Below the pieces are notes generated by a model that was not told the origin of the DNA, did not search any database, and saw only the letters and a program-made list of their open reading frames with translations. A stretch of DNA of 64,000 nt from Candidatus Taylorbacteria bacterium RIFCSPHIGHO2_01_FULL_46_22b (GTDB lineage Bacteria; Patescibacteriota; Minisyncoccia; Phycocordibacterales; DSPV01), in contig MHRF01000010.1 in the NCBI GenBank assembly GCA_001820875.1, forward strand, positions 3,371 through 67,370, read 5' to 3'. The position numbers were made by a program, and so were the translations under genes. This document shows, piece by piece, positions 39,054 to 55,779 of this stretch. The first letter of the stretch is position 1; each line of letters opens with the position of its first letter.

Positions 39054-41114
39054 GTGAAACATACGGTGAACTTCTTTGTCCCAAAAAAGTTGCGGATTTT
39101 AGTCGTCGTGGCGCTTATGTGTTTGCTCGCAGCGCCCGTTAATTTCCTGTTGTCTCCAAAAACGGCCGAGGCGCAAGGACTCGTTCCTACTGGAGACTGG
39201 CTCAACACAGTATTTCAGAGCATCACAAGCGCGGCGACCTATTATGAAGAGCTGAAAGAATCCGTTCTCGACGGTCTTGCGTGGTATGCGGCAAAAATAA
39301 TCATTGAACAAATGACCTCGGAACTCGTTAACTGGATCAATGGCGGAGGAAATGGCGATCCAGCATTTATCAGTGATCCTGCGGGATTCTTTTTGGGTGC
39401 AATTGAAGCGACTGCGGGAAATATTTTACACGACTCTCCACTTGGTTTTCTCTGCGATCCTTTAAAACCGTTTGAAGCGCAGATAAAAGTTACGTTAAGC
39501 AATCGCTATAATAAAAATACTTCGGGATCACTTAACAGAAAGAACTCTTCCTGCGGCATAGATGACATTAGGGATAATTTGTCGGGTTTTTACGCAGGCA
39601 ATAACAAAGGGAAAATAACCAGTTGGGACCAGTGGCTTTCCATTACCCAAATACCCTCAAACAATATTTATGGCGCAACAATCCAAGCAGAACTTGAAAT
39701 GGATGCAGCGATAGGAGGCACACAGTTTCTTAATAAGACAACTGCTGACTGGGGACAGGGATTCCAATCGCAGGGTGAATGTACGTTAGAGAGTGAGGAA
39801 ACGGGAGCATGTTTACAGTATGCAATCGTTACCCCCGGATCATTTATAAAAGATACGCTTACTAATCAACTCGGACTTAGTGGCGATTCCTTGGTGACAG
39901 CCGACGAGATCAGTGAAATTATCGGTGCGATAGTGACACAACTATTCAATAAAGTAGCTACGGGAGGGCTCGCAGGTCTCTCAAAAGGAGGCAACAGTGC
40001 GTATACCAATCAAATAAAGGTTGACAAAAACCCCGCAGCATCTGTTAAGGCAGACGGGAAAGTAACTAAACGAACCACGAACGGCAACGGTCAGCAGGTA
40101 GACGAAGATGTAGATACAACTGAATGGAACAACGCAAACAATGCGGTAAATACTGCAATAAGAAACGAATTTGACGTGCTGTACGAGGAAGAGAATGCGA
40201 GAGCGCAAGCAAATATCCCCACCGGTGGTGGATTTGCGATTGTGGGGACACAACAACCTCGACTCGATCTCCGGAATGCAACTGCTGACCAAATCTGTAC
40301 TGACGACTTCCCAGGTACCACCGGACTATTTATAGGTTCAGCTGACCAAGCGCTTGATGGTTCGGGTACCACTGCGTCGCTCGCTAATGGATGCACCGGC
40401 ACTCCTTACTGGTGGAATGTCACTATCCCAGCAGCAACCAAACTTGATAAAGTTGAAGTGCAAGTTAATAGTGGAAAATATGGACTTGCGGGATGGCCGC
40501 CAGCAGGAGGCGGGAACAACGCACCTCCTATAGGACCATTTCTCGCACTCTACCCTCAAAACACTGCTGGACAAACAACTATTGGGAGTTGGATTTGGAA
40601 TGCTTCAGCGGGACGTTTTGAAAAAAAGCTCACCTACACAGGAGCACTCATTCAAGAAGAGTTGCCGGAGGCCCTACGCAAGATACCTATTACCAAGATC
40701 CAAATTGAATCTAACCGACAAACGGGTGCAGACAGACCGGGCTTAAGTCTTTCAGAAGTCCGCGTCTTCCGCCATCTCCTCCCTGAAATTAATGCAAGTA
40801 AAGTTCCAACATCATTGACGCAAGTACAAGCAACAGACTTCGACCCGACACAAGCAGCGTGGATTACCGCTCAATACTATCCGCTCTATAGCAATCCTGC
40901 AGTACCGATTGATCAAGATAATATCCACGTGGTTATCACGGACACCGCCACTCAAACAGTGGTACAACCAACCAATACGGCCACAGGTACCTACACACTT
41001 CTTCCGGGTACCTATCAATTCTCATACACCGCGACATCACCTGCCTCTGACAATCAAACGAGCGAAACCGTGACTGGTACAGTGCGAGTTATCGCATCGC
41101 CAACAACTCCATAA
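39054..41114 (+). CDS. Large secreted hypothetical protein (first gene of T4SS-like operon)
   Basis: 686 aa. Signal/anchor LRILVVVALMCLLAAPVNFLLSPKTAEAQG. Thr/Gly/Asn-rich. Stop 2 nt before the next gene. Confidence 0.5.
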   Translation: MKHTVNFFVPKKLRILVVVALMCLLAAPVNFLLSPKTAEAQGLVPTGDWLNTVFQSITSAATYYEELKESVLDGLAWYAAKIIIEQMTSELVNWINGGGNGDPAFISDPAGFFLGAIEATAGNILHDSPLGFLCDPLKPFEAQIKVTLSNRYNKNTSGSLNRKNSSCGIDDIRDNLSGFYAGNNKGKITSWDQWLSITQIPSNNIYGATIQAELEMDAAIGGTQFLNKTTADWGQGFQSQGECTLESEETGACLQYAIVTPGSFIKDTLTNQLGLSGDSLVTADEISEIIGAIVTQLFNKVATGGLAGLSKGGNSAYTNQIKVDKNPAASVKADGKVTKRTTNGNGQQVDEDVDTTEWNNANNAVNTAIRNEFDVLYEEENARAQANIPTGGGFAIVGTQQPRLDLRNATADQICTDDFPGTTGLFIGSADQALDGSGTTASLANGCTGTPYWWNVTIPAATKLDKVEVQVNSGKYGLAGWPPAGGGNNAPPIGPFLALYPQNTAGQTTIGSWIWNASAGRFEKKLTYTGALIQEELPEALRKIPITKIQIESNRQTGADRPGLSLSEVRVFRHLLPEINASKVPTSLTQVQATDFDPTQAAWITAQYYPLYSNPAVPIDQDNIHVVITDTATQTVVQPTNTATGTYTLLPGTYQFSYTATSPASDNQTSETVTGTVRVIASPTTP

Positions 41115-41116
41115 CC

Positions 41117-44100
41117 ATGAAAAGATTCTTCTACAAAATAAACACCTTGCGATCCAAGATTACCTTGCGAAATGCCGTGGTTGTCGTGTTGTTACTTGCA
41201 CTTGTTTCTACCGTTGCACCACATCTGGAAGTAGGGACCGCACAAGCATTTACTGGATTCAGCCCCGCTTTAACTCAAGCTGTTGCAGGAGCAGTGGGGG
41301 CAGGCGCATCTGAAGTTGGCGAGAATGCCTCTATGTTAAGCAAGGTGTATGACGCCATCTCAACACTCACAAGTCCTCTAAACGCCCTGCAAACATTTTT
41401 CACTAAAGTTCTGGGGATTATTGTCCTCACTATTATGTCGCTCGTGGTCCGCATTTCTGCGGCCATTATGGAGGGTGCAATGTTTTTGACTGCCAACATG
41501 AGCGAAGTGCTTCGGGTTGTTCCCATGGTTGATATAGGATGGGCACTGTTCCGAGATCTTGCAAACATGGTATTCATATTCATCCTTCTCTACATCGCCA
41601 TCGCCACCATTTTGAACACTGAAACAAACACACGACAAATGCTTGTTGACGTGATCATTACAGCACTCCTCATCAACTTCTCACTCTTTCTCACCAAAGC
41701 AATGGTAGACGGTTCAAACATCGTTGCACTGATGTATTACAATAAAATGAACGCTGTCCAACCAGTAGGGGGAATAGCTCGAGCCTCGCAAGAAACCACC
41801 GTGAAGCTTTTTGGACAAGAGTTAGGAGGCCAGCTTTCTCACGGTCCGACACTGATACTAATAGATGCGCTCGGTATCGCAACATTCTACGATCCAGACG
41901 CTTTCAAACAAGCAGCCGCAACATCACAAACAAATCTCACCGAGGGATGGAATCAGTTCCTTCGGGCGGCAGGAGGAACTCCTGATGCACCGTACACGGA
42001 ACTTGCACGAGTTCTACTCGGAGCTGTATTGATGCTCATTGTTGCATTTGTGTTTGCAACTGCCGGTTTATTGTTGATCATCCGTATTATTGTACTTATG
42101 TTTTTGATGATGCTCGCTCCTCTGGCATTTGTCGCACGCATATTGCCACAAGCCAAAGGACAATGGGAAAAATGGTGGAGCACGTTAATGGCAAACCTTA
42201 TTTGGGCACCAATCTATTTTGCCATGCTGTATGTAATTCTCACCGCCATCAGAGGATTAAATCGAAGCGGCACACTTGCTGGCGGACTGGGGGGGCTTGA
42301 ATCAGATATGGGAAATCTCTTGGGGTACATCTTCATTATCGTTCTCCTCTCAATGACCATCATTATTGCCAAGCAACTCGGACTTCACGGGGGAGAGATG
42401 GTGCACAAATGGTCTGAAAATGCAGCTAAGTGGGCACGTGAAAAGGTTCGACAAGGTCAAGGAGTTGTCGGACGTCACACCATTGGACGTGCAGCTCGAT
42501 ATACAGAGGAAGCTGCTCATGAATCGCCATTCTGGAATAGCGTGGTGGGATCAAAGATTCGTGAATTTACTACACAACCCCTTGCAGATGCAAAGTTTGG
42601 CGGAACAATGTCCGCATGGCAAATGAAGGAAAAGGATAAGGTCCGCCAAACCGGTCAAGTAGAGGCCGAGCGTCTGCAAAAGTTCATGCATGAAGCCGAA
42701 AAAGGAGACGCCGCCAATCCACATGTGCTAGAAGACTTGGCTATCCGATTGGCCCCCCAAACACTTGCCCACACTGATATGAGATTCCTAAGGAAACTGC
42801 CTATCGGCATACTTCCCGACACACACTTCCAAGCGCTTATGGCATCGGATAAGGTACAAAAGGATAAAGACGAGCTCGCTCGCCTACGTCTCAAGCCTAT
42901 GCAGCTTGTTCGGGACAAAGTCAGAGCTCAAACGCTTGCCACTATTATGCTTCAACAACATCCCGAGTTAAAAGACACTTATTTCGAGGCGGACGGACTG
43001 AAGCTATTCAAGAAAAAAGACTTATTGGATGCAAAGCTTGCGGAAGGGAAGGCACTCGCAGATCTTCCTGTTGAAGAAAGACTGTCACCAGCAGAAGAAA
43101 CCTTACTTGCCGAAATGAAATCAAGAGGTATTTCGTGGTCAGCAAAAGAAGAAAAAGCATTTGATCCTGCGTTCGAATTTATACGTGCCAAAAATCCAAA
43201 AGAACTTGGGCAGTTAAACCGTGTCGATCCAGACGCTATAAATGAGCTGGCACCTATCTTAAATTGGTCCCAGTTAGATCCTTTGCGTAAAAGCGACGAC
43301 ATTACCTTCAAACAACGCAACGGACGTGATGGGGGACAATTGCGCGATTACAAGGATCGAATGTTGCTTGATGCGTTAGCCATCGAATATGGGGTATCCC
43401 TCACTGATGCTAACGGAAAACTACGTACGCTTGAAGAGCGCTACGACGATTTTATGAAAGTAAACGGTCTGCTCCGCAAGAAAGTGCGCCAGTTTGGGGT
43501 TGAGTCGATTGAAAATGCGGCGCACTCAAAACACAGCGAATATACCCAAAAAGACATCGATCTGTGGGGTAAATTGAAAGCAATAAGCCCTGCACAAAGA
43601 GATATTGCCCGCCACCTGTTTGAGCAACACCACGAGGGACGGAGTGACTCGGAGCTTACTAAGGGGCGTACTTATCAGCGAAATGACGCAATTAACTTTG
43701 CATCACTCGGAGCTGGTTCAGTACCTTTCCTCATAGATCGAGACAACGACAAGAAAGAGGAACAGGGAGGACAACTGCTAACAGCTATTGCAGAAGATAA
43801 TTTGACGGAACAAAACAAGGAATTCCTTGCCAAGGTGTGGTGGGATCGCGATGCAGATAAATACCTGAAAAATTGGGAGGAGATTGCTCGACGGAATGGG
43901 TGGGAAAACAATGAAAGAGTCAAACTCGCGTTAAAATGGAAAAATGAGGGGGAAGCAGGCAAGAAAAAGTTTAAAGAAGCGGTTAAAGCCATTAAGCATA
44001 CGGATTTCTTTGCGGGTTCAACAACAACCGGAGGAACTAAGTGGGATGAGTTAATTGCAGAGGATGCACCGGCAACTGGAGGCGCAGGAGGCAGGGGAGG

Positions 44101-44254
44101 AGCTGCTGCAGCGCCAGCCGGGAGACCGAGAGTGGCTCCGCCAGCATCAGGGACACCACCACTGCGCGTAAACCGAGGAGGACAAAGTGGAGCAAACCAG
44201 CAAGGACAACAAAATCAATCGGGTCAAAATCCGACTGGAACAAATAATCCTTAA
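41117..44254 (+). CDS. VirB6/TrbL-like polytopic membrane protein with long hydrophilic C-terminal domain
   Basis: 1045 aa. At least 6 TM helices in the first ~450 aa (e.g. LGIIVLTIMSLVVRISAAI, MVFIFILLYIAIATIL, LLGAVLMLIVAFVFATAGLLLIIRIIVLMFLMMLAPLAF). A charged ~500-aa tail ends in a Gly/Gln-rich low-complexity region. This architecture is typical of VirB6/TrbL in Gram-positive-type T4SS. Confidence 0.55.
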   Translation: MKRFFYKINTLRSKITLRNAVVVVLLLALVSTVAPHLEVGTAQAFTGFSPALTQAVAGAVGAGASEVGENASMLSKVYDAISTLTSPLNALQTFFTKVLGIIVLTIMSLVVRISAAIMEGAMFLTANMSEVLRVVPMVDIGWALFRDLANMVFIFILLYIAIATILNTETNTRQMLVDVIITALLINFSLFLTKAMVDGSNIVALMYYNKMNAVQPVGGIARASQETTVKLFGQELGGQLSHGPTLILIDALGIATFYDPDAFKQAAATSQTNLTEGWNQFLRAAGGTPDAPYTELARVLLGAVLMLIVAFVFATAGLLLIIRIIVLMFLMMLAPLAFVARILPQAKGQWEKWWSTLMANLIWAPIYFAMLYVILTAIRGLNRSGTLAGGLGGLESDMGNLLGYIFIIVLLSMTIIIAKQLGLHGGEMVHKWSENAAKWAREKVRQGQGVVGRHTIGRAARYTEEAAHESPFWNSVVGSKIREFTTQPLADAKFGGTMSAWQMKEKDKVRQTGQVEAERLQKFMHEAEKGDAANPHVLEDLAIRLAPQTLAHTDMRFLRKLPIGILPDTHFQALMASDKVQKDKDELARLRLKPMQLVRDKVRAQTLATIMLQQHPELKDTYFEADGLKLFKKKDLLDAKLAEGKALADLPVEERLSPAEETLLAEMKSRGISWSAKEEKAFDPAFEFIRAKNPKELGQLNRVDPDAINELAPILNWSQLDPLRKSDDITFKQRNGRDGGQLRDYKDRMLLDALAIEYGVSLTDANGKLRTLEERYDDFMKVNGLLRKKVRQFGVESIENAAHSKHSEYTQKDIDLWGKLKAISPAQRDIARHLFEQHHEGRSDSELTKGRTYQRNDAINFASLGAGSVPFLIDRDNDKKEEQGGQLLTAIAEDNLTEQNKEFLAKVWWDRDADKYLKNWEEIARRNGWENNERVKLALKWKNEGEAGKKKFKEAVKAIKHTDFFAGSTTTGGTKWDELIAEDAPATGGAGGRGGAAAAPAGRPRVAPPASGTPPLRVNRGGQSGANQQGQQNQSGQNPTGTNNP

Positions 44255-44259
44255 AAACC

Positions 44260-45207
44260 ATGGATGCTGAAAAACGAAAATTACTGGACGAAAAATTCTA
44301 CTTGCTTGCAAAACCCTTGCAGGACGTGATTCTTGATGAAGACGAGAAACTAGAAACTACAGTTGATCTCATAGTACAGAAGTACAAACTTGAACTCGAT
44401 ACTGCACGAATACTGGACGATGAAATCGTTATGGTACTTGGTGGATTTACCAACCCTAAGGACTTTATACGAGCACTTAGTGGAAAACTTGGGACAGATG
44501 CAAGTAAAGCACCCGCAATTGCGCAAGAGATAAACGAAAAAATATTCCGCGCGGTCAAAGACGACCTGCAAAATCTCTATGGACTTCCTATCCCGAAACA
44601 ACCTCAACAAAAACCTTCGCTTGCCACCGAACTTGAAGAAGATGTTGGGCTACGAAAACAACTAGAGCAGGCAAAATCTGCTGAACAGAAACGACCTCTG
44701 TCGGCAGTGTTACAAGATGCGTTACGTGCAGGAGGAAAAGAGACTGAATCTGGAATAACGAATAATGAATTTAGGGAAGAGCAAAATTCAAAATTCAAAA
44801 TTCAAAATTCTGCTAATGAAATTGAACCTCTGCGTACTATGGAACGTGATATGGAATCCGTACGGCATACTGGAACTTCCCGTCCAAGACCAGCGTTTAT
44901 ACCTCCAACTCCAAGAGACAGAGAATCTGGAATAACGAATAATGAATTTAGGGAAGAGCAACTAAAAGAAGAGAAGCCTCCGGTCCCACCAAAACCCCCA
45001 GCTTCTACACCCTTTACCCAAAGCCCAAGACTTCCAGTCCCTCCGCCACCACGTGCACCGAGACAAGAACCCGCCGAAGAGCCCGAGGAGCAACTGAGTC
45101 GCGAAGATATCTTGCGTGGCATTGAAGATCCATCGAGTATTCCACGCGACCGTACCAATAACTCGCCGGTGTACAACGCGGATCCGTATAGAGAACCCAC
45201 AGAGTAG
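44260..45207 (+). CDS. Proline-rich repeat protein (T4SS-like operon)
   Basis: 315 aa. A 39-bp perfect direct repeat encodes ESGITNNEFREEQ twice. A (caaaatt)x4 heptanucleotide tract sits at 44782-44809. The C-terminus is Pro-rich (PPVPPKPPASTPFTQSPRLPVPPPPRAP). Confidence 0.5.
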   Translation: MDAEKRKLLDEKFYLLAKPLQDVILDEDEKLETTVDLIVQKYKLELDTARILDDEIVMVLGGFTNPKDFIRALSGKLGTDASKAPAIAQEINEKIFRAVKDDLQNLYGLPIPKQPQQKPSLATELEEDVGLRKQLEQAKSAEQKRPLSAVLQDALRAGGKETESGITNNEFREEQNSKFKIQNSANEIEPLRTMERDMESVRHTGTSRPRPAFIPPTPRDRESGITNNEFREEQLKEEKPPVPPKPPASTPFTQSPRLPVPPPPRAPRQEPAEEPEEQLSREDILRGIEDPSSIPRDRTNNSPVYNADPYREPTE

Positions 45208-45297: not shown

Positions 45298-45705
45298 ATG
45301 CGCTTTCAAGTCCCACAATTTATTGAGATAGAAGATAAGGTATTTGGACCATTTACCTTTAAGCAATTCGTATATATCGCCGGCGGAACAGGTATCTGCT
45401 TTCTGCTCTTATATACACTGCCGAGATTTCTCGCGATCATAGCGGTTATCCCTGTCGCCGCACTTTCCCTTGCGCTCGCCTTTTACCGAATAAACAACAA
45501 ACCGTTCGTGCAAATGGTGGAAGCTTTCTTCAGATACATTATCGGCACACGTCTCTATTTGTGGCACAGAACAGATAAACAAGTAACCGGAAAAGCACCG
45601 CTCGCTCGGCAATACGAACAAATAAAAATCCCTACGCTCGAAGGAAGCAAACTAAAAGATATTCAGTGGAGTTTGGGAGTGAAGAAAGATGGAGTTAGCG
45701 AATAG
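45298..45705 (+). CDS. PrgI/VirB3-like small membrane protein
   Basis: 135 aa with two adjacent TM helices (YIAGGTGICFLLLYTL; FLAIIAVIPVAALSLALAFY), positioned directly upstream of the VirB4-family ATPase as in Gram-positive conjugation loci. Confidence 0.5.
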   Translation: MRFQVPQFIEIEDKVFGPFTFKQFVYIAGGTGICFLLLYTLPRFLAIIAVIPVAALSLALAFYRINNKPFVQMVEAFFRYIIGTRLYLWHRTDKQVTGKAPLARQYEQIKIPTLEGSKLKDIQWSLGVKKDGVSE

Positions 45706-45719
45706 CGAAAAGCGATTAG
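45704..45719. repeat. IR motif copy 3 (agcgaaaagcgattag)
   Basis: Perfect 16-bp inverted repeat with 46103-46118, flanking the four-helix-bundle gene. Overlaps the stop of the PrgI-like gene. Confidence 0.6.
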
Positions 45720-45740
45720 AGAGCAAAAATACTGAAAAAT

Positions 45741-46106
45741 GTGCCGAAACTAAAGACATACAAGGAGTTAATCGTATGGCAGAAATCAGTGACAATTGTT
45801 GAACATGTGTATACACTCACCAAAAACTTCCCTAAGGATGAAATATACGGACTGACTAGCCAGATGAGACGAGCGGCAATTTCTATACCATCTAATATCG
45901 CGGAGGGATGGTCGCGAGAAACTCGAGGAGATTTTGCCTATTTCTTGAGAATCGCCCGCGGATCTAGTTCAGAACTCGAAACTCAACTAGAAATTAGCCA
46001 GCGATTAACGCTTATAACCGATACACGTTATAATGAAGTGAGTGAATTGCTTTCTGAAGTATCACGCATGTTGAATGCAATCTTGCGTAAATTACCTAAT
46101 CGCTAA
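45741..46106 (+). CDS. Four-helix-bundle protein of the 23S-rRNA-IVS-protein / DGR Avd family
   Basis: 121 aa. LIVWQKSVTIVEHVYTLTKNFPKDEIYGLTSQMRRAAISIPSNIAEGWSRETRGDFAYFLRIARGSSSELETQLEISQRL matches the GLTSQ.RRAA.SIPSNIAEG...DF..FL.IA.GS..ELETQL signature. Confidence 0.8.
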   Translation: MPKLKTYKELIVWQKSVTIVEHVYTLTKNFPKDEIYGLTSQMRRAAISIPSNIAEGWSRETRGDFAYFLRIARGSSSELETQLEISQRLTLITDTRYNEVSELLSEVSRMLNAILRKLPNR

Positions 46107-46118
46107 TCGCTTTTCGCT
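46103..46118. repeat. IR motif copy 4 (ctaatcgcttttcgct)
   Basis: Perfect reverse complement of 45704-45719. Confidence 0.6.
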
Positions 46119-46126
46119 TTTTCCCT

Positions 46127-46774
46127 ATGGCAGCATCTTCAAAATCATCACAGGAGTTTGTCCCCGTTAAAGAAGTTCGAGACGGCGTATTGGTCCTGCA
46201 GGATAATTCACTCCGAGCGGTTCTGATGGTTTCCTCTATTAATTTTGCTCTCCAATCGGAAGAAAGCCAGACGGCTATCGTGGCTCAATTCCAAAATTTC
46301 CTAAACTCCCTAGACTTTTCTGTCGAAATTTCCATGCAGTCCCGAAAGATGGATATAAAACCTTACCTTTCTCTCCTTGAGGAACGGTACCAGAAGCAAC
46401 AGAGCGAGCTTATGAAAATACAAACTCGAGAGTATATAGAGTTCATCAAAACCTTTACAGACAATACAAATATTATGACGAAGACATTCTTCATAACTGT
46501 CCCGTATGGTGCAACCATGGTTTCGCTCAAGAAAAACCCTCTGGAAACAATCAGCGGGTTTGTAAGAAAATCTGATACATCTAAAAAAACCAAAGGGGAA
46601 GTTGATGAATTCGAGGAACACAAAGAACAATTGCAACAACGTCTTGCGGTAGTAGAACAAGGGTTAGTCCGATGCGGTCTTAAAACCGCTCGGCTCGGAT
46701 CAGAAGAACTTATCGAACTCTTTTACAGACTTTTCAACCCCGGAGAGGCACAACAGCGAATACCGACTTCATAA
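46127..46774 (+). CDS. VirB4/TraE-family conjugative ATPase, N-terminal domain (upstream of in-frame TAA)
   Basis: VPVKEVRDGVLVLQDNSLRAVLMVSSINFALQSEESQTAIVAQFQNFLNSLDFSVEISMQSRKMD matches the N-terminal domain of Gram-positive VirB4 homologues (PrgJ/TraE/TcpF type). Ends at TAA 46772-46774, in the same frame as the next ORF. Confidence 0.7.
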   Translation: MAASSKSSQEFVPVKEVRDGVLVLQDNSLRAVLMVSSINFALQSEESQTAIVAQFQNFLNSLDFSVEISMQSRKMDIKPYLSLLEERYQKQQSELMKIQTREYIEFIKTFTDNTNIMTKTFFITVPYGATMVSLKKNPLETISGFVRKSDTSKKTKGEVDEFEEHKEQLQQRLAVVEQGLVRCGLKTARLGSEELIELFYRLFNPGEAQQRIPTS

Positions 46775-46780
46775 AAATTT

Positions 46781-48610
46781 ATGGGCATTTTTGACTTTTT
46801 AAAAAAGAAAGAGCAGGCACTACCGTCGATTCTCCCTGGGGAAATCTATGAGGCAGCTTCGCTTGAACTCAAAGATATTATCGCTCCGGGGGCACTCAAA
46901 ATCAGTCCTCGTCAGCTAAACTTGGGGGAGAAAATAGCACGAACATTCTTTGTGGTTTCCTATCCGCGTTATCTCAATGACAACTGGTTCTCACCGGTCA
47001 TCAACCTCGACAAAGTATTTGACATCGCTATCCACGTACATCCGATAGACACTTCGACAATTCTCCGAACATTCCAAAAGAAGGTGGCCGAGGTACAAAG
47101 CCAAATCTCCATGCGCGAAGACAAGGGGTTGGTGCGCGATCCCAAACTCGACACGGCTTACCAAGATCTGGAACAGTTGCGAGATTCGCTCCAGCAAGCG
47201 CAGGAAAAACTATTTGAAGTCGGATTGTATGTCACTCTGTATGGAAGTACCGAGGAGGAATTGACCAAATTGGAAACCGAAATAAAAACCATGCTCGACG
47301 CACGCCTAGTGTATCTAAAACCCGCGCTCTTTCAGCAAGAACAAGGTTTTATAAGCACGGTGCCCTTGGGGGACGACCAACTGCTGGTACACAACAAACT
47401 CAACACGTCTCCGCTATCAAGTATTTTCCCTTTTGTATCGTTCGACCTCACGTCAGACAAAGGAATATTGTATGGTATCAATCGACATAACGCCTCTCTC
47501 GTGCTGTTCGATCGATTTTCACTTGAGAACTACAACTCAATCACATTCGCGAAATCCGGATCAGGAAAATCGTACGCAACCAAACTTGAAATCTTACGCA
47601 CACTTATGTTTGATGCTGATGTGATTGTCATCGATCCCGAACGCGAGTATGAACACCTTGCGGAAGTTACCGGCGGGAAATATTTCAATATTTCGCTCAA
47701 TTCAGAACATCACATAAATCCCTTCGATCTTCCACCCACACGGGAAGGGGAATCGGCGGCAGACGTACTTCGATCAAACATAATCAACCTTGTCGGCCTG
47801 TTTCGAATCATGCTCGGCGGGCTTTCGCCTGAAGAAGATGCGCTGATTGATCGCGCGATTACCGAAACATACGCCCTGAAAGATATTACTCCTGACAGTG
47901 ATTTCTCAAAAATGTCCGCGCCATTGATGTCAGATTTTGAAATGGTACTTTCCGGTATGGACGGTAGCACATCACTCGTGCAGAAACTTTCGAAGTACAC
48001 CAAGGGTACGTGGTCAGGTTTCATCAACCAACCGTCAAACGTCAATATCAATGATCGGTTTATTGTATTCTCCGTGCGAGATATGGAAGACGAACTTAAA
48101 CCAGTCGCCATGTACATTGTCATGCACTTTATTTGGAATGCAATTAGACAGAATCTCCGCAAGCGCCTCCTCGTCATCGACGAAGCATGGTGGATGATGA
48201 AATCAGAAGACACTGCTTCGTTTCTTTTGTCGCTTGCGAAACGTGGGCGCAAATATTTTTTGGGACTTGCCACTATCACTCAAGATGTTGATGATTTCCT
48301 CCGATCCCCCTACGGCCTCCCGATACTCACCAACTCATCAATTCAGATGCTCCTGAAACAATCACCGACCTCTATTGAACGCATCAAAGAAGTGTTTAGT
48401 CTTACCGACGAAGAAAAATACCTTCTGCTTGAATCGGATGTCGGAGAGGGAATCTTCTTTGTTGGACTCAAACATGTAGCCATAAAAATAATCGCATCAT
48501 ACACCGAAGATCAAATCATCACCTCTGATCCTTCACAACTCTTGGCAATTAAAAAAGCAAAAAAAGAGTTTCTTGCACAAGGAGGAGATAGCGGTACTCC
48601 TCTCAATTAA
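46781..48610 (+). CDS. VirB4/TraE-family conjugative ATPase, central and ATPase domains (downstream of in-frame TAA)
   Basis: IAPGALKISPRQLNLGEKIARTFFVVSYPRYL (conserved VirB4 block), Walker A ITFAKSGSGKSYATK and Walker B LLVIDEAWWMM. Frame identical to 46127..46774, separated only by TAA-AAA-TTT. Confidence 0.8.
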   Translation: MGIFDFLKKKEQALPSILPGEIYEAASLELKDIIAPGALKISPRQLNLGEKIARTFFVVSYPRYLNDNWFSPVINLDKVFDIAIHVHPIDTSTILRTFQKKVAEVQSQISMREDKGLVRDPKLDTAYQDLEQLRDSLQQAQEKLFEVGLYVTLYGSTEEELTKLETEIKTMLDARLVYLKPALFQQEQGFISTVPLGDDQLLVHNKLNTSPLSSIFPFVSFDLTSDKGILYGINRHNASLVLFDRFSLENYNSITFAKSGSGKSYATKLEILRTLMFDADVIVIDPEREYEHLAEVTGGKYFNISLNSEHHINPFDLPPTREGESAADVLRSNIINLVGLFRIMLGGLSPEEDALIDRAITETYALKDITPDSDFSKMSAPLMSDFEMVLSGMDGSTSLVQKLSKYTKGTWSGFINQPSNVNINDRFIVFSVRDMEDELKPVAMYIVMHFIWNAIRQNLRKRLLVIDEAWWMMKSEDTASFLLSLAKRGRKYFLGLATITQDVDDFLRSPYGLPILTNSSIQMLLKQSPTSIERIKEVFSLTDEEKYLLLESDVGEGIFFVGLKHVAIKIIASYTEDQIITSDPSQLLAIKKAKKEFLAQGGDSGTPLN

Positions 48611-48616
48611 TCAACC

Positions 48617-49627
48617 ATGGAAGGAGAAGTTCACAAAAGAAGCAACATTGAATGGTTCTTCTTGATTGCAATTGCAATTACTATTGATCTTGTGCAAATA
48701 GGACTTGATCTCCTTGTGGGAGTTGGCATAGTCATTAATCGATTTATTGATCTCATTGTTGGCCCAGCACTTTTTATGTACTGCGCCGTCACGCATATTA
48801 AATTAACTGTAGGTAGAACCGTAAGTATTCTCGGCACTATCGTCGGTGAGATGATTCCCGTTATTGATATCGCTCCATTTTGGACAGCTGATGTTATCTT
48901 CATTATGCTCTCGGTCAAAGCGGAAGAAGGAAACAAACTGGCAAAGGTTGGATTGCTTGCAACTGGCATCGCTGGAGCGGCAGCAGGAGGAGCATTCAAG
49001 GGAAGCAAAAAACCACCGTCAGGAGCGATGGTTGTCAGAAAGGGTGGCCCCAGCCCCCAAACAGCTTCCGGCTTTTCTCGATCTCAACCAAAAGTAAATA
49101 TCCCCAAAAGTAAAAACTGGCAGGCGGCGGGTTTTGAAACAGAGGAAAATGCGAACGAGTGGCACACCGCTCTGATGTCATCAGGTAATTCTCGAATTGT
49201 TCAATCCGAAAAGGCTCGGGCAACTATGGGGCGAATGTGGAAAGACGCTGGCTTTACCCCCGATCAAGCGCGTGAATATATCGCGCAGGGCGTTGTAAAT
49301 CCACAGGCAGCACGTGGGTACAATCTGCCAAGAAGGGCGGAGGTACAACCTCCTCCGATACCGCAGGGTCAGCGCGTGCCCCCGAAAATAAACACCGGAG
49401 GAAAACCGCCGGTAATTCCACCGCCAAAAATCAATGATACACGAAGACCTCCGGTCATTCCACCGCCCAGACTCACTGGAGAAGAACCTACAAAAACAGA
49501 GCGCTTACGCAACTATGCAAAGGAGAAATTGTACGAAAAGGGTAAACAAAAAGTCGAGGATGTAGAGGTGATCCGTGGAAATGCTCCTAGAAAGGAGGAG
49601 CAAGAAGAAGAGGTGGATAGTGCATAA
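48617..49627 (+). CDS. Hypothetical polytopic membrane protein with Pro-rich C-terminal repeats
   Basis: About 4 TM helices in the first 120 aa. C-terminal PPKINTGGKPPVIPPPKINDTRRPPVIPPPRL repeats. Confidence 0.5.
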   Translation: MEGEVHKRSNIEWFFLIAIAITIDLVQIGLDLLVGVGIVINRFIDLIVGPALFMYCAVTHIKLTVGRTVSILGTIVGEMIPVIDIAPFWTADVIFIMLSVKAEEGNKLAKVGLLATGIAGAAAGGAFKGSKKPPSGAMVVRKGGPSPQTASGFSRSQPKVNIPKSKNWQAAGFETEENANEWHTALMSSGNSRIVQSEKARATMGRMWKDAGFTPDQAREYIAQGVVNPQAARGYNLPRRAEVQPPPIPQGQRVPPKINTGGKPPVIPPPKINDTRRPPVIPPPRLTGEEPTKTERLRNYAKEKLYEKGKQKVEDVEVIRGNAPRKEEQEEEVDSA

Positions 49628-49660
49628 GTAAACACGGATGGCTATGGTAAAATAGAAACA

Positions 49661-50671
49661 ATGGTTTTGAAACACTTAGTGGGTAAAACTCTACTTGTTC
49701 TGGTGCTCACCGCACTGTGTTCAGTGAGCAGTACCAGCGCTCACGCACAACTCTTGGGTGGAAATGCTAACCCTTTGATACTAATCACCATACCAGCGTA
49801 CCCTCGCCCAAATTCAGATGTTACCGTTGAGGTACGGAGCACATCTGTTGAAATCGATGTATCAGATATTGGATGGCTCGAAGACGGCGAGCTATCAGAA
49901 AGTGGGCTAGGAAAAACCTCTCATCGCACCCATGTCGGCGACAAGGGAAGTTCGCAAACAGTTACCGCAATCGTACACACACCAGAAGGAAGAACCTATG
50001 AACAAACCATACTGATCCGGCCGCAATCAATCAGCCTCATTTGGGAATCTTCTTCAAGCGTGCCTCCTTTTTATCGAGGCAAAGCACTGTACACGAGCAC
50101 AAACCCACTCACCATAACTGCTATTCCAGAAATCTTTGATGAGTTGGGTGAGCCAATAAGCGCGTCTCAACTTTCATTTATATGGAAATTAAATAACAAA
50201 ACACTGTCAAACAAATCAGGGTACGGCAAAAGTTCTCTCTCGCTCACAGAACCGATTCTTCGGACACCAGCGACCATATCGGTGACCGTACAGAGTCGTG
50301 ACGGGCTTTCGGTCACTACAGGCTCACTCTCAATAGACCAATCACAGCCTTTGGTCCTAATCTACGAAAATAGTCCTTTATACGGAATTCTCTTTAACCA
50401 AGCAATCTTAAATACTTTTACGCTCCGTGGTACCGAGGCAGGAGTAGAAGCATTTCCATATTTTTTTAGCGGCATGCGCCAAAAATTGGGCTTCAGTTGG
50501 AATGTGAATGGAAGAGATATTGAGGGACTTTCAAGTTCCTATATCACTCTGCGAAATACAACAGGACAAAGTGGGACCGCAACTGCTTTTATATCAATCA
50601 CTAACCCATCAAGCTCCTTCGAAAGTGCGGGCAATGGTTTCAATATAAACATCACTCAACCTGAACAATGA
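49661..50671 (+). CDS. Hypothetical secreted protein
   Basis: 336 aa. Signal peptide LLVLVLTALCSVSSTSAHAQ. Overlaps the next gene by 4 nt. Confidence 0.5.
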   Translation: MVLKHLVGKTLLVLVLTALCSVSSTSAHAQLLGGNANPLILITIPAYPRPNSDVTVEVRSTSVEIDVSDIGWLEDGELSESGLGKTSHRTHVGDKGSSQTVTAIVHTPEGRTYEQTILIRPQSISLIWESSSSVPPFYRGKALYTSTNPLTITAIPEIFDELGEPISASQLSFIWKLNNKTLSNKSGYGKSSLSLTEPILRTPATISVTVQSRDGLSVTTGSLSIDQSQPLVLIYENSPLYGILFNQAILNTFTLRGTEAGVEAFPYFFSGMRQKLGFSWNVNGRDIEGLSSSYITLRNTTGQSGTATAFISITNPSSSFESAGNGFNINITQPEQ

Positions 50672-51060
50672 AATACGTAACCGCAGTTTATATTGTAGCC
50701 CTCTGTTGCACATTTTCTTTTGTAACCACCGTGCCACCGGCACAGGCAGAAGATGTAAATTATGTCCCGCTTGCTCCTATCGCCAATGTTAATCCTTCAG
50801 GAGCAACAAGTGTCAATGTTGGAAATTACATGACACAACTGTTCAAACTTGCAATCGGAATCGCCGCAGGTCTTGCAGTTATGCGAATTGCGTATGCTGG
50901 AATAAAATACATGCTTAGTGATGTGATCACCCAAAAATCAGATGCGGTGCAAATGATCAAGAACGCAGTCGGAGGGCTTCTGCTTGCCCTATGCGCATGG
51001 CTAATACTGTACACGATAGGAGGAGACAGCCTTACCAATCTTAACTTCAACAGTATATGA
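50668..51060 (+). CDS. Candidate VirB2/TrbC-like pilin-type small membrane protein
   Basis: 130 aa. Signal peptide (AVYIVALCCTFSFVTTVPPAQA), then two hydrophobic helices (LFKLAIGIAAGLAVMRIAYAGI; GGLLLALCAWLILYTIGG). Size and topology match conjugative pilins; no sequence-level proof. Confidence 0.4.
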   Translation: MKYVTAVYIVALCCTFSFVTTVPPAQAEDVNYVPLAPIANVNPSGATSVNVGNYMTQLFKLAIGIAAGLAVMRIAYAGIKYMLSDVITQKSDAVQMIKNAVGGLLLALCAWLILYTIGGDSLTNLNFNSI

Positions 51061-52310
51061 CGCGTAACCGAGCACTGATTATTATTGTGGGAGTAGTTGC
51101 ACTGGTACTGATTGCGCTTGCTATTTTTTATTTTTTCTTCAGAAATGCTGGTGCACCTTACGAACCAGCTCCTATTATTGACATAAATAACCCATCCCTC
51201 CCTATCAGCCAAAATGCGTCTAATACAAGTATGGGAGGAGGAAATACGGGAATTACGGAAGAAAACCAATTCCAAAATATCCCTCAAACTTTCCAACAAC
51301 TGCGCCTGCTCTCAAGTGTACCAGTCGCTGGTGCTACACTATTTGAGAAAAATGCGGATACGTTTGTACATTACATAGAGCGGGCAACGGGGCATATATA
51401 CGAAGTACAAGCTTCTCAAAAACAAACGCCTTACCGAATTTCCAACACTACTATACCTAAAATCTATGAGGCTTTTTGGACGCAAAACGGACGTGGCATT
51501 ATTGTCCGGTACTTGAAAGAGGGGAGTGACGATATACAAACGTTTTATGCCGGACTCAAAGCAAACACGTCGACATCGAGCGAACAAACTCTTGATGACG
51601 GCACTTTTCTTCCTAATAATATCAGCGACCTTACAGTTTCACCGGCGCAAGACAAAATTTTTTATCTCTCTCGAAATGGAACACAGACGGTAGGAATTCG
51701 ATCCAATCCTAACGGAACAAGTAAAAACCAGCCTTTCTCTTCTTCTGCTCATGAATGGCTTGTGTCTTGGCCAAGCGCGACAAATATCTCGCTGAACACG
51801 CGACCGTCTGCTGAAGTGTCTGGTTTCCTTTTTTTCCTCAATCCATCAACAGGCGGATTGCAAAAAATACTCTCGGGGGTGCAAGGACTTACTAGTCTCT
51901 CCAACAACAATGGGTCACTAGTTATTTACTCGGAAAGCAATGGAACAGGTGTTGCGCTTAAATTATTTGATGTGAAAAAAGGAACTGCAACAGACCTTGG
52001 GGTGCGCACACTCCCAGAAAAATGCGTCTGGAGCAAAAAAGTGAACACTACTTTATTCTGTGCGGTACCCGATTCTGTACCCAGCGGCGCATACCCTGAT
52101 TCGTGGTATCAAGGACAGATATCTTTTACTGATAATTTGTGGGCAATCGACACCAAGACAGGAACAACGAAAATTATTATGACCCCTCAAAGCATAGCTC
52201 AACAAATAATGGACATTGTTCAACCAGTGTTAAGTGAAAAAGAAAACTACATCCTTTTCACTAATAAAAAAGATTTAAACCTCTGGTTATTGAGTCTGTC
52301 CGATTTGTAA
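51057..52310 (+). CDS. Hypothetical membrane-anchored extracytoplasmic protein (last gene of T4SS-like operon)
   Basis: 417 aa. N-terminal TM anchor ALIIIVGVVALVLIALAIFYFFF. Ser/Thr/Asn-rich beta-rich domain. Confidence 0.5.
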   Translation: MTRNRALIIIVGVVALVLIALAIFYFFFRNAGAPYEPAPIIDINNPSLPISQNASNTSMGGGNTGITEENQFQNIPQTFQQLRLLSSVPVAGATLFEKNADTFVHYIERATGHIYEVQASQKQTPYRISNTTIPKIYEAFWTQNGRGIIVRYLKEGSDDIQTFYAGLKANTSTSSEQTLDDGTFLPNNISDLTVSPAQDKIFYLSRNGTQTVGIRSNPNGTSKNQPFSSSAHEWLVSWPSATNISLNTRPSAEVSGFLFFLNPSTGGLQKILSGVQGLTSLSNNNGSLVIYSESNGTGVALKLFDVKKGTATDLGVRTLPEKCVWSKKVNTTLFCAVPDSVPSGAYPDSWYQGQISFTDNLWAIDTKTGTTKIIMTPQSIAQQIMDIVQPVLSEKENYILFTNKKDLNLWLLSLSDL

Positions 52311-52321
52311 GTGAAAAATTG

Positions 52322-52822
52322 TTATAGGGAAGCACTTATATCTCCAACGTACTTGAGTACTATGCGGCGCTGGCTTCCAGTACCTTCTGAATGGGTTTCA
52401 ATATCAGGAACCCCTTCGAAGAAGGTGTGTATGATCATCCTCTCATAAGAAGACATCGGATCCATCTCAACAGTTGTTTTAAATGATCGAGCTCGTTCAG
52501 CGAGAATCTGCGCTTTGGTACGTATCTCACCAAGCAGTCGATCGTGATAATCATTTACATCAACGTAAAAATCGACAGGATTTGCATCAGTTGAGACTGC
52601 ATTGAGCTTCTTGCCAACAATACGCTTTACCAAATGATTAATCGCTGAAATGTGGGCACCCCGTGTTCCTATAAGGATACTCGAATCAGAACTCTTAATA
52701 ACAAAAGCAAGTCGATCTCCTTGTTCAATCACAGTAATTTCCTGAAAAGGCACCCCCAAGCGATTGAGTAGTGTTTCTATAATTTGTCTTATGTGTGTCT
52801 GATGTTCCATATTATTTCCCAC
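52322..52822 (-). CDS. jag: Jag/KhpB-type KH + R3H RNA-binding protein
   Basis: 166 aa. KH-like region and R3H-like C-terminus (…GTGSQRRIVLKYV). Overlaps the yidC stop by 11 nt, the classic yidC-jag pair. Confidence 0.8.
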   Translation of the reverse strand: MGNNMEHQTHIRQIIETLLNRLGVPFQEITVIEQGDRLAFVIKSSDSSILIGTRGAHISAINHLVKRIVGKKLNAVSTDANPVDFYVDVNDYHDRLLGEIRTKAQILAERARSFKTTVEMDPMSSYERMIIHTFFEGVPDIETHSEGTGSQRRIVLKYVGDISASL

Positions 52823-53540
52823 TGCGAGCTTTAAATTGTTTTCGCACGAACCACTCCTGCACTATCGAGAAAACATTGTTTGTCGTCCAATAGAGGGCAA
52901 TAATACCTGACAGGTTGTAAACAATAAAGAAAGCCATGACGGGAAAGAGATATCTCATTTGTATACTCATTGACCGAGCGAGATTATCCTTAAGCGTTCC
53001 TGAACTTCCGGTTGATTTAGGTATAGGCATAGAAAACCGTATCTGAAAGTATTGGCTGATCGCGGTGAGAGCTGCCAACAGATAACTCTTCGCGGTGATA
53101 TCAAGAAGACCTAGAAACTGCATGTTTATTGCACTCGGAGCGTGCACAAAAGTATACAGTAGGCCATCATTAACCACGGGCAAGCCGCTCTTTAGAAAGA
53201 CGTGGTAAAGAGCAAAAATGATGGGAATTTGTATGAGGATCAACAAAAAACCTGAAAGGGGATTGAGTCCTTGAGTGCGGTAAAACTCCATAATTTTTGC
53301 AGCCTGTTGAGTTTTATCAGTAACCGTAGCCTTTATACGGTCAATATCCCCCTGCACATCCTTCAATTTCAGCTGGCTTTCTATAGAACGCCGCGAAAGA
53401 GGGTAGAGAATCAAACGAACAAGTATGGTGAATATAATGATAGCAATCCCAGCATCGTGCCCAGGAATACTGTTCATTAAAAAAATTAACCCATTGTATA
53501 GGGGTTGCGAAAACACCGTCGTAAAAAACCCTGGGTTCAT
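52812..53540 (-). CDS. yidC: Membrane protein insertase YidC (short, Gram-positive type)
   Basis: 242 aa. 5-TM YidC/Oxa1 core (…QPLYNGLIFLMNSIPGHDAGIAIIIFTILVRLILYPL…). Neighbours are rnpA and rpmH. Confidence 0.85.
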   Translation of the reverse strand: MNPGFFTTVFSQPLYNGLIFLMNSIPGHDAGIAIIIFTILVRLILYPLSRRSIESQLKLKDVQGDIDRIKATVTDKTQQAAKIMEFYRTQGLNPLSGFLLILIQIPIIFALYHVFLKSGLPVVNDGLLYTFVHAPSAINMQFLGLLDITAKSYLLAALTAISQYFQIRFSMPIPKSTGSSGTLKDNLARSMSIQMRYLFPVMAFFIVYNLSGIIALYWTTNNVFSIVQEWFVRKQFKARSGK

Positions 53541-53567
53541 AAGGTTATGGTAACGTACTCGGAGATG

Positions 53568-53903
53568 CTATTCAAGTTTGAGTCTCTTCATGGCTTCGGT
53601 GACAAGACCCACTACCAAAGGCTGTAATTTGATGTAAGAAGTGGGTGTCTCCTTGCGCAGGTATATAACACCCTCAAGTGTGGGGAGTGGGTGTATAGAG
53701 TGTAGGATCTCATATATCCGCCTCCGAAGAGTATTACGGGAAACAGCTAGGGGGGCTGCAACACTTGGAATGACTACAGAGAAACGGCCTCCAGCAGAGG
53801 ATCGAGAAAACCTCATAGATAGGCCATTATTAGTAACAACTAAGGAAGACCGTCGTACTATTTGAAAACGGCTCCGATCCAGACGCTTGGTGCGCCTAAG
53901 CAT
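53568..53903 (-). CDS. rnpA: Ribonuclease P protein component
   Basis: 111 aa. Basic N-terminus LRRTKRLDRSRFQIV..., RNR-like motif region. Sits downstream of rpmH. Confidence 0.85.
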   Translation of the reverse strand: MLRRTKRLDRSRFQIVRRSSLVVTNNGLSMRFSRSSAGGRFSVVIPSVAAPLAVSRNTLRRRIYEILHSIHPLPTLEGVIYLRKETPTSYIKLQPLVVGLVTEAMKRLKLE

Positions 53904-53905
53904 AC

Positions 53906-54037
53906 CTACAAAGCAAGCTTAGCTCGGCCAACTCTGCGGCGATTACGCAAAACTCTCCTTCCGTTAGAGGATTTAGTTCGAGTTAAGAATCCATGGGTTC
54001 TTGCTCGCTTTCTTTTCTTTGGTTGATAGGTTACAGA
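53906..54037 (-). CDS. rpmH: 50S ribosomal protein L34
   Basis: Start at the internal [44 protein letters not shown], the canonical L34 sequence. The longer track ORF is an upstream extension. Confidence 0.9.
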
Positions 54038-54202
54038 CATAAAAAGGAGTATAGCAAAAAAATAACCTTTGGCAACCATATCCTGTTTTTCCACTAAAAA
54101 ACACTATCCACATACTATAAACAACTTACGAACACATTCATTGTTGTTAGACAAGTTTGCTAACTATCCAAGCAGTATATAATGGTGCAACAAAACTAAT
54201 TT

Positions 54203-55570: not shown

Positions 55571-55779
55571 CTTGTTAATAATATGTGAGTTGTTTGTGTG
55601 TATAAGAGTAAAATAAACAAAAATCCAAAAATACTCCACAGACAGTAAAGGGTTTTAAAAAATTATCCCCAATCTAACGTGAATTTTAATAACACAAAAA
55701 CGGCTTATTTTAAGGTTTTTTAAAACCTATACACATATCAACAGTTATAATCATAGTAATAATCTTTTAAATAAAAAAC
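55571..55779. promoter_or_regulatory. Putative oriC / DNA-unwinding region between dnaA and dnaN
   Basis: About 210-bp, strongly AT-rich spacer with near-consensus DnaA boxes (aattatcccca; tactccaca). Further box-like sites upstream of dnaA (ctatccaca at about 54105). Gene orientation switches strand here. Confidence 0.4.

Follow-up and report, generated by a model that had tools for sequence, protein, structure and literature searches.

Two adjacent genes with a conserved break point correspond to full-length VirB4 in a Candidatus Taylorbacteria secretion cluster

The locus and its gene cluster

The window, a 64,000-nucleotide stretch of a Candidatus Taylorbacteria contig, carries two adjacent open reading frames on the forward strand that between them resemble a VirB4 ATPase. 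ORF1 (46127..46774, + strand) starts with ATG, contains 215 codons and ends in a TAA stop at 46772-46774. ORF2 (46781..48610, + strand) has its own ATG and contains 609 codons. The stop of the former and the start of the latter are separated by AAATTT (46775..46780, + strand), an ordinary short operon spacer of 6 nt. An earlier note on this DNA had described the two ORFs as lying in the same frame with only TAA-AAA-TTT at the junction, and translation confirms this description, since positions 46127-48610 read in one frame give a single '*' followed by K-F-M. The standard genetic code assumed in that note was also borne out. No Shine-Dalgarno-like sequence was evident upstream of ORF1 or ORF2 when the sequence was inspected.

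A stop codon at this position could in principle have been made by an assembly or sequencing error, which can affect any metagenome-assembled genome, although nothing specific to this locus points to one. The exact 215-aa ORF1 product is present on 15 contigs, and ORF1 together with the junction is identical at 8 listed places, each from a different ENA, JGI or Logan sample and assembly. The recurrence of the junction in 8 independent assemblies refutes the note's suggestion of an assembly error, and the probability that we assign to such an error is negligible.

The cluster surrounding the two ORFs was compared with 80 loci of related species, all from Paceibacteria metagenome-assembled genomes, at 51-66% identity. 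Directly preceding ORF1 is a gene for a small membrane protein of the PrgI family, which is VirB3-like (45298..45705, + strand; Pfam PF12666 PrgI, 2.3e-10). It is the first gene of a conserved PrgI, ORF1 and ORF2 triplet, and 77 of the 80 loci have a homologue upstream of ORF1. Further upstream, three large genes encoding proteins of 686, 1045 and 315 aa (39054..45207, + strand) are part of the conserved cluster and had no match in Pfam or NCBIfam. Of the 80 loci, 13, 62 and 23, respectively, have homologues of these genes ahead of PrgI in the same order; many of the loci are cut short upstream.

Downstream of ORF2 (48617..52310, + strand) are genes encoding two 336-aa proteins, a VirB2-like type IV secretion system (T4SS) pilin and a 417-aa protein. 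The pilin gene (50668-51060, + strand) matched Pfam T4SS_pilin at 1e-05 with 25.9 bits, just below the cut-off of 26.6, and the NCBIfam Mbov_0395 pilin-like model at 7e-05 with 22.4 bits, below the cut-off of 40. The pilin is kept in 53 of the 80 loci and the gene g49661 in 68. Thus VirB4 has T4SS neighbors, PrgI and the pilin-like gene, and synteny is conserved across the 80 loci. No VirB6 was identified by profile in the cluster, and neither a relaxase nor a coupling protein was seen among the genes scanned. The cluster lies on the chromosome beside dnaA, and its synteny is kept across species.

ORF1 and ORF2 compared with full-length VirB4

ORF2 would supply the VirB4 ATPase proper (46781..48610, + strand; 609 aa), comprising the second half of the N-terminal domain and a RecA-like C-terminal domain. 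The protein passed the cut-off of 325 for the CD1110-family VirB4 model of NCBIfam (NF045971) with 378.7 bits and fell below those of two other VirB4 models (114.7 versus 643 for TIGR00929 and 260.9 versus 590 for the Mycoplasma model). It also matched Pfam P-loop_TraG at 6.5e-28 and the VirB4 C-terminal domain of PDB 4ag5 at 6.4e-40. Translation, together with alignment to fused homologues, shows an intact Walker A motif, AKSGSGKS, at ORF2 residues 257-264 (47549..47572, + strand), and translation likewise shows an intact Walker B motif, LLVIDE, at residues 463-468 (48167..48184, + strand). In the alignment of the fused family, G460, G462, K463 and S464 of Walker A and D667 and E668 of Walker B are invariant. 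By sequence, ORF2 thus has the RecA-like P-loop domain with both Walker motifs that is expected of a VirB4.

ORF1 (46127..46774, + strand; 215 aa) appears to encode a stand-alone, TrsD-like protein corresponding to the VirB4 N-terminal subdomain. A Candidatus Taylorbacteria protein has the identical sequence (100%), and ORF1 has more than 7,900 homologues, the best 120 of which are all stand-alone proteins of 209-223 aa with 53-71% identity. The Pfam assignment PF26593, 'TraC-like', is a precomputed annotation carried by the identical protein and by all 120 best homologues; our own Pfam profile scan did not report PF26593 for ORF1. On full-length VirB4 models, ORF1 maps to the N-terminal 140-180 positions or so. 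An AF2 model of ORF1 (pLDDT 74) was compared with known folds, and the 14 best PDB matches were all TrwK/VirB4 chains, a specific but loose resemblance (TM 0.35-0.45). When PDB sequences were searched with a profile of the ORF1 family, nothing was returned even at E 10, so that among PDB entries the link between ORF1 and VirB4 comes from fold comparison. Many members of the ORF1 family (280-443 aa) carry long disordered C-terminal tails rich in P, A, Q and T.

When both ORFs were placed on full-length VirB4 models, they occupied successive segments. ORF1 and ORF2 matched positions 3-138 and 183-733 of the CD1110 family model (752 positions), 100-250 and 292-893 of the Mycoplasma ICE VirB4 model (894 positions), 4-177 and 265-726 of TIGR00929 (792 positions), and 15-176 and 298-373 of the TraC_F_IV profile. 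In all four models the coverage is complementary, collinear and non-overlapping. The VirB4/TraC-type N-terminal domain is not found on the ATPase polypeptide itself, and is instead divided between ORF1 and ORF2. This collinearity upholds the note's proposal that the two ORFs make up a VirB4 in which nothing is lacking, with ORF1 as its N-terminal piece and ORF2 as the rest. Judged by these alignments, the pair is complete, and neither polypeptide is complete alone.

Natural fusions of the two parts were also identified. Among the best 120 clusters for P0216, 118 are fused homologues of about 775-807 aa, with named sources in Colwellbacteria, the Patescibacteria group or the Parcubacteria group. 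The fused proteins align first with ORF1 (40% identity) and further on with ORF2 (55%), and only a short variable linker lies in between. A fused Colwellbacteria homologue was modeled as a single chain (pLDDT 69.6, pTM 0.51), a moderate confidence that suffices for fold assignment and not for interface detail, and the model matched full-length TrwK/VirB4 over about 800 columns (E 2e-25). Its pLDDT dips at the linker. The break between ORF1 and ORF2 thus falls within a variable, low-confidence linker between conserved blocks. Two 600-aa proteins of the fused clade, P0291 and P0387, were considered as recent fissions and rejected, as they derive from fused genes broken by frame changes or a deletion and are no clean two-gene forms.

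The break point across 80 related loci

The earlier note had proposed two further explanations for the junction, each of which predicts something about related genomes. According to the first, TAA is a recent nonsense mutation that inactivated a formerly single virB4 and left the secretion system dead. The shared frame and the distance of only 6 nt are compatible with this explanation, and truly broken versions do exist in the fused Colwellbacteria-type clade, where the N-domain of L092 and L093 is disrupted by frame changes or a deletion. However, a stop at the equivalent position and a separate ATG for the ATPase gene are present in all 80 related loci, in all three relative frames. The ORF1 stop is TAA in 54 loci, TAG in 15 and TGA in 11. 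Both ORFs retain their length and invariant residues: ORF1 homologues are 207-233 aa long and ORF2 homologues 599-634 aa in 73 of 75 complete cases, and here Walker A and Walker B are intact. Furthermore, ORF2 begins with MGIFDFLKKKE, an N-terminal motif conserved in the 80 loci and present in TraE of pSK41 as well. The claim of an inactivated system is therefore refuted, and we regard a recent nonsense mutation as very improbable.

The second explanation holds that the stop codon is subject to programmed readthrough or recoding, which would yield a single 826-aa VirB4. In this genome the common frame and the 6-nt spacer would permit it. Across the 80 loci, in contrast, the frame relations are distributed 18/33/29, so that a common frame is found in only 18 loci and different frames in 62. 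The shared frame is itself uninformative, since 18 of 80 does not exceed the one-third that an arbitrary frame would give. Spacer length varies between -4 and 442 nt, with a median of 5 nt, and the two genes overlap by ATGA (-4) in 7 loci. Several spacers contain multiple stops or are 99-442 nt long, and in three loci (L041, L046 and L069) an unrelated gene of about 120 aa lies between ORF1 and ORF2. The spacer sequences are unrelated, so there is no conserved recoding context. These observations contradict programmed readthrough, which we likewise consider extremely unlikely.

Together the results show two genes with a conserved break point, complementary to full-length VirB4, in chromosomal synteny next to oriC. 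We conclude that ORF1 and ORF2 are very probably separate, functional, co-transcribed genes that together provide what many other type IV secretion systems have as a single-chain VirB4. The main consequence is for annotation: labels such as pseudogene, recoding site or assembly error would be wrong for these two genes, and the secretion system counts as intact.

A probable two-polypeptide VirB4 and its known relatives

In the arrangement that we favor, ORF1 would be a free-standing protein of the 'TrsD-like' or PF26593 family that corresponds to the first 200 or so residues of the VirB4 N-terminal domain, and ORF2 would provide the remaining N-terminal domain and the Walker A/B ATPase domain. 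The tiny spacers and ATGA overlaps suggest that synthesis of the two products is probably coupled on one mRNA. The products would then probably assemble, with no covalent link, into a VirB4-like unit. In the R388 machine, whose structure has been solved, the membrane-proximal N-terminal part of VirB4 reportedly contacts VirB3 and VirB8, and by analogy ORF1 would form the corresponding membrane-proximal part. The putative ORF1/ORF2 unit would then power the T4SS of Patescibacteria, on which epibiotic growth of the one cultured model depends.

ORF1 might alternatively be an accessory or regulatory protein that descended from the VirB4 N-terminus and does not restore a VirB4 N-terminal domain together with ORF2, for instance an adaptor or an assembly factor present in a stoichiometry of its own. 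The long disordered tails of many family members (280-443 aa) and the location of Gracilibacteria TrsD homologues away from virB4 (PMC12102498) would fit such a role. Against it, ORF2 lacks the segment that ORF1 supplies, model coverage is complementary and not duplicated, natural fusions join both parts through a short linker, and the genes are tightly linked, with a median spacer of 5 nt. We therefore consider an accessory role improbable.

It is also conceivable, although rather unlikely in our judgment, that the split is functionally meaningful. The free N-subdomain and the ORF2 N-terminal motif, M-[S/G]-hydrophobic-F-x-x-hydrophobic-x-x-K-K-E-E, would then act as a docking module on VirB3 that recruits or releases the ATPase. 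This motif is common to ORF2 and pSK41 TraE and is absent from the fused Colwellbacteria proteins. If such a module exists, the Colwellbacteria fusions would be a natural control and a role could be assigned to TrsD.

The earlier note was correct in listing a split, two-polypeptide VirB4 among its options. Its description of this state as unusual does not hold, however, as a two-polypeptide VirB4 is ordinary and already known: it prevails in this lineage, is also found in Firmicutes plasmids and in pSK41 (TrsD/TraD + TraE), and is described in the literature. Quinonero-Coronel et al. (2025, Microb Genom; PMC12102498) reported that a TrsD-like protein is the most abundant T4SS component of Patescibacteria and is usually encoded beside virB4, with 2,272 TrsD homologues in 2,221 assemblies, 1,664 of them associated with VirB4. 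In that study TrsD is described as a remote homologue of the N-terminal portion of VirB4 and has no assigned function, and Gracilibacteria homologues are not adjacent to virB4. The TrsD homologue of Ca. Southlakia epibionticum is listed there as essential, and the locus is essential in this organism (Wang et al. 2023, PMC10633639). The wording 'split' or 'fission' is not used in PMC12102498, nor did we find there the ORF1/ORF2 complementarity, a common break point or the Colwellbacteria fusions. The word TrsD is absent from the main text of Guglielmini et al. (2014, PMC4027160).

Comparison with these systems suggests that TrsD, in Patescibacteria as in Gram-positive plasmids, represents the first half of the VirB4 N-terminal domain in detached form. 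The cut would lie at apparently the same linker even in lineages far apart, and in Colwellbacteria the two parts form a single protein of about 790 aa. This offers a concrete, testable idea for TrsD function, a minor gain for T4SS biology.

In single-chain VirB4 proteins (the CD1110 family, Mycoplasma ICE, TrwK of R388, PDB 7O41 and 8RTD), domain content and order are the same as here, but the first 200 or so residues are part of the chain, whereas here they form a separate polypeptide. In pSK41 (TrsD/TraD and TrsE/TraE of pGO1/pSK41, MPF_FATA class), a 135-aa gene is followed by a 227-aa TrsD and a 672-aa VirB4; the unnamed 135-aa gene, of unconfirmed family, occupies the position of PrgI. 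ORF2 is 24% identical to pSK41 TraE/VirB4 over its full length (E 8e-32), and its residue 3 aligns with residue 2 of that protein (IFDFLKKKEQ versus IMAFLKKKKQ). ORF1 and pSK41 TrsD are only remotely similar. The NCBIfam TrsD model (NF041427) gave ORF1 25.2 bits (E 1.2e-05, profile positions 14-142 of 201) against a cut-off of 200, and hhalign of the ORF1 family with pSK41 TrsD was not significant (E 0.032); we therefore do not claim membership of the curated TrsD family. The placement is nevertheless of the TrsD type, with a protein of about 200-230 aa (here 215 aa) encoded directly before a VirB4 that is short at its N-terminus (here 609 aa). The homology of ORF1 with staphylococcal TrsD rests mainly on gene position and a common match to VirB4 N-termini. 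Additionally, the conjugative plasmid pSK41 has a relaxase and a coupling protein, whereas the cluster described here is chromosomal.

Gene order and split are also as here in Geobacillus pGspE55-1 and the C. difficile BI1 megaplasmids, where PrgI is followed by a 318-322-aa protein and then by a 636-640-aa DUF87 ATPase, although the N-terminal protein is about 100 aa longer than ORF1 and only 24-29% identical to it. Since pSK41 TraE starts at a position equivalent to ORF2 and these Bacillota plasmids have the same gene order, the break point is apparently common to distant lineages, and the arrangement is probably old. The TrsD-like and VirB4 T4SS of Patescibacteria shares with this locus the lineage, the gene pair, the PrgI/VirB3 and VirB2-like pilin neighbors and the position adjacent to dnaA, and has no substantive difference from it.

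Two open reading frames and the VirB4 fold

The earlier note on this DNA described a VirB4 gene interrupted by one in-frame TAA, and coordinates and translation bear out that layout. ORF1 (46127-46774, + strand) opens with ATG and runs for 215 codons to a TAA at 46772-46774, and ORF2 (46781-48610, + strand) has an ATG and 609 codons; a one-frame translation of 46127-48610 contains a single stop, followed by Lys-Phe-Met. ORF2 matches the P-loop ATPase domain of Pfam P-loop_TraG (6.5e-28) and the VirB4 C-terminal domain in PDB 4ag5 (6.4e-40), and its Walker A (AKSGSGKS) and Walker B (LLVIDE) motifs are intact in translation. ORF1 matches VirB4 models at the N-terminal end only, and both ORFs are VirB4-related. 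Coverage of each full-length VirB4 model is collinear and complementary, with ORF1 on positions 3-138 and ORF2 on 183-733 of the CD1110 family model (length 752), 100-250 and 292-893 of the Mycoplasma ICE VirB4 model (length 894), and 4-177 and 265-726 of TIGR00929 (length 792). Thus the two ORFs cover the VirB4 fold in complementary parts and sum to one VirB4 with nothing missing, as had been proposed.

We infer that the two products would join non-covalently to rebuild a VirB4-like unit, in which ORF1 would supply the part of the N-terminal domain nearest the membrane. The corresponding part of VirB4 in the solved structure of the R388 machine touches VirB3 and VirB8. The main rival, that ORF1 is a separate adaptor or assembly factor and not a structural complement, has to be set beside the complementary coverage, and we consider it improbable.

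The junction in related genomes

The protein collection contains more than 7,900 homologues of ORF1. Each of the top 120 (53-71% identity) is a 209-223-aa protein that stands alone and has a precomputed assignment to Pfam PF26593 ('TraC-like'); they come from Taylorbacteria, Paceibacteria and other Patescibacteria. The junction was surveyed in 80 loci, one per species, taken from genome assemblies. All 80 have a stop codon closing the ORF1 homologue (207-233 aa) at the corresponding site (TAA in 54, TAG in 15, TGA in 11) and an ATPase gene with its own ATG. Of 75 complete ORF2 homologues, 73 measure 599-634 aa; the exceptions are one intein-bearing and one frame-shifted gene. The genes are closely linked, and their spacers are of the kind usual under translational coupling (-4 to 442 nt, median 5; the -4 nt spacer, an ATGA overlap, occurs in 7/80). 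Relative to ORF1, the ATPase gene lies in the same frame in only 18 loci, in +1 in 33 and in +2 in 29; therefore the shared frame in the window is a coincidence. Additionally, an unrelated gene of about 120 aa separates the two VirB4 halves in three loci (L041, L046 and L069).

Together these results exclude two of the explanations raised in the earlier note. A recent nonsense mutation inactivating the system is ruled out by the stop and separate ATG in 80/80 loci, with their varied frames and spacers, and programmed readthrough by the differing frames (62/80), the range of spacer lengths and the three intervening genes. Assembly error is ruled out separately: the exact 215-aa product is present on 15 contigs, and ORF1 and the junction are identical in sequence at all eight places shown, which derive from separate samples and assemblies in ENA, JGI or Logan. 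ORF1 and ORF2 are two cistrons. The suggestion of a split, two-polypeptide VirB4 was therefore correct, but not its description as unusual, since in this lineage VirB4 is ordinarily encoded by such a gene pair.

Several loci carry further features. In L014 (4640-4738) and L060 (4640-4720) the longer ORF1-ORF2 spacer opens with a palindromic, G+C-rich hairpin motif (TTTGTCATTCCCGCGAAAGCGGGAATCCAG / TTGTCACCCCTGCGAAGGCAGGGGTCCAGA), suggesting insertion of a small repeat element at the gene junction. The ATPase gene of L072 (2745-2764; Zambryskibacteria CG11, PCVB01000013.1) shifts frame at about residue 490-499, through a frameshift or a sequencing error. In L048 (4652-8443; Parcubacteria group bacterium ant_bin.105, JBKJHK010000019.1) the VirB4 ATPase homologue has its Walker A loop precisely interrupted (GSGK|S...HN|SYATK) by a 662-aa in-frame insertion with LAGLIDADG-type motifs; the insertion resembles a P-loop intein that includes a homing endonuclease.

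Fused relatives and the position of the break

Searching the cluster representatives with ORF1 gave 2,225 matches. Of the best 150, nearly all measure 195-260 aa, some reach 280-443 aa through a low-complexity tail, and only two are full-length proteins. One, P0216 (797 aa; named cluster members Colwellbacteria), is 40% identical to ORF1 over residues 6-215 and 55% identical to ORF2 over residues 230-796. When P0216 itself was the query, fused proteins of 775-807 aa made up 118 of the 120 top clusters, at identities down to 59%. One lineage has therefore fixed the fused form; its members with a source name are Colwellbacteria, Patescibacteria group or Parcubacteria group bacteria. Family alignments equate the last conserved ORF1 block, NPGETEK, with NPxTVEK of the fused proteins, where about 16 variable residues precede ED-IAP, the counterpart of DIIAPGALK in ORF2; the break thus falls in a variable linker. 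Structure predictions agree with this reading of break and fusion. The AlphaFold model of P0216 (pLDDT 69.6, about 61 at the linker; pTM 0.51) aligns across about 800 columns with the complete TrwK/VirB4 of plasmid R388 (E 2e-25), and the 14 best PDB matches of ORF1 modeled alone (pLDDT 74) are TrwK chains (probability 0.92-0.99, TM 0.35-0.45). The Colwellbacteria fusion looks secondary, by parsimony and not from a tree, because Staphylococcus, Bacillota plasmids and most of the Patescibacteria examined all have the break.

Many ORF1-family members bear a long low-complexity C-terminal tail rich in Pro/Ala/Gln/Thr (e.g. P0169, 432 aa; P0215, 443 aa), and the fused protein P0267 has a junction linker of about 100 aa and the same composition (residues ~215-320). 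Two MAGs from the Colwellbacteria-type clade with fused virB4 (L092:1282-3458; L093:1362-3843) have the N-terminal part of that gene broken by frame changes or a deletion, and gene callers give a 600-aa protein only. These breaks are either real disruptions or co-assembly errors, the situation once suspected for the window.

Operon setting and known two-gene systems

The cluster is chromosomal and syntenic between species: large genes without a family match precede PrgI, ORF1 and ORF2, and after two or three further genes comes a VirB2-like pilin. Its end adjoins (52322-56880) the genes for an R3H/KH protein, yidC and rnpA (- strand), then dnaA and dnaN (+ strand), and the cumulative GC skew is lowest at about 50-52 kb, immediately ahead of them. 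The cluster thus adjoins the replication origin, matching the published position of Patescibacteria T4SS. Its context in the window and the syntenic loci gave no signs of an inactivated secretion system.

Between PrgI (45298-45705, + strand) and ORF1 lies a PF05635 gene (45741-46106; 23S-rRNA-intervening-sequence protein/four-helix-bundle, 4.5e-41), flanked by 22-23-nt inverted repeats (45697-45722 and 46096-46121, 87-91% complementary) within an element at 45697-46121. Relatives carry PF05635-type genes in other operon spacers, including between the two VirB4 genes; in the three relatives checked (L041:4638-5047, L046:4313-4749, L069:4634-5035) they are framed by 26-34-nt inverted repeats unrelated in sequence between loci. 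The element looks like a mobile stem-loop cassette akin to an rRNA intervening sequence, here within an mRNA operon, and its stem might be a processing site.

The two-gene arrangement is neither unusual nor new to the literature. Quinonero-Coronel et al. 2025 call the small protein TrsD, a remote homologue of the VirB4 N-terminal portion and the most abundant Patescibacteria T4SS component (2,272 homologues in 2,221 assemblies, 1,664 of the 2,272 VirB4-associated), and point out that the homologue of Ca. Southlakia epibionticum is listed as essential (PMC12102498). The T4SS locus of that organism is essential for epibiotic growth (Wang et al. 2023; PMC10633639).

The actinobacterial SCO6880 family model (length 477) aligns weakly but collinearly with PrgI (13-82), ORF1 (236-292) and ORF2 (363-476), at 18-20 bits each under a cut-off of 60. 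This hints that in Streptomyces a single protein, lacking the ATPase, may combine a VirB3-like segment with the entire N-terminal domain of VirB4; if so, the same VirB3/VirB4 module would be divided there at another point.

The prototype of the two-gene form is the staphylococcal plasmid pGO1/pSK41, where a 135-aa gene precedes trsD (227 aa) and a VirB4 homologue (672 aa). ORF1 is distant from staphylococcal TrsD (hhalign E 0.032), and the curated TrsD family was set aside for it (NCBIfam model, 25 bits against a cut-off of 200). ORF2 is 24% identical to the pSK41 VirB4 across its full length (E 8e-32). Since the alignment begins at the second residue of the pSK41 protein (IMAFLKKKKQ against IFDFLKKKEQ), the ATPase genes of Staphylococcus and of this genome start at corresponding positions, and the break point appears to be shared with pSK41. 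Other Bacillota plasmids share the gene order, those of Geobacillus and C. difficile encoding PrgI, an ORF1-like protein and the ATPase in the same three-gene arrangement.
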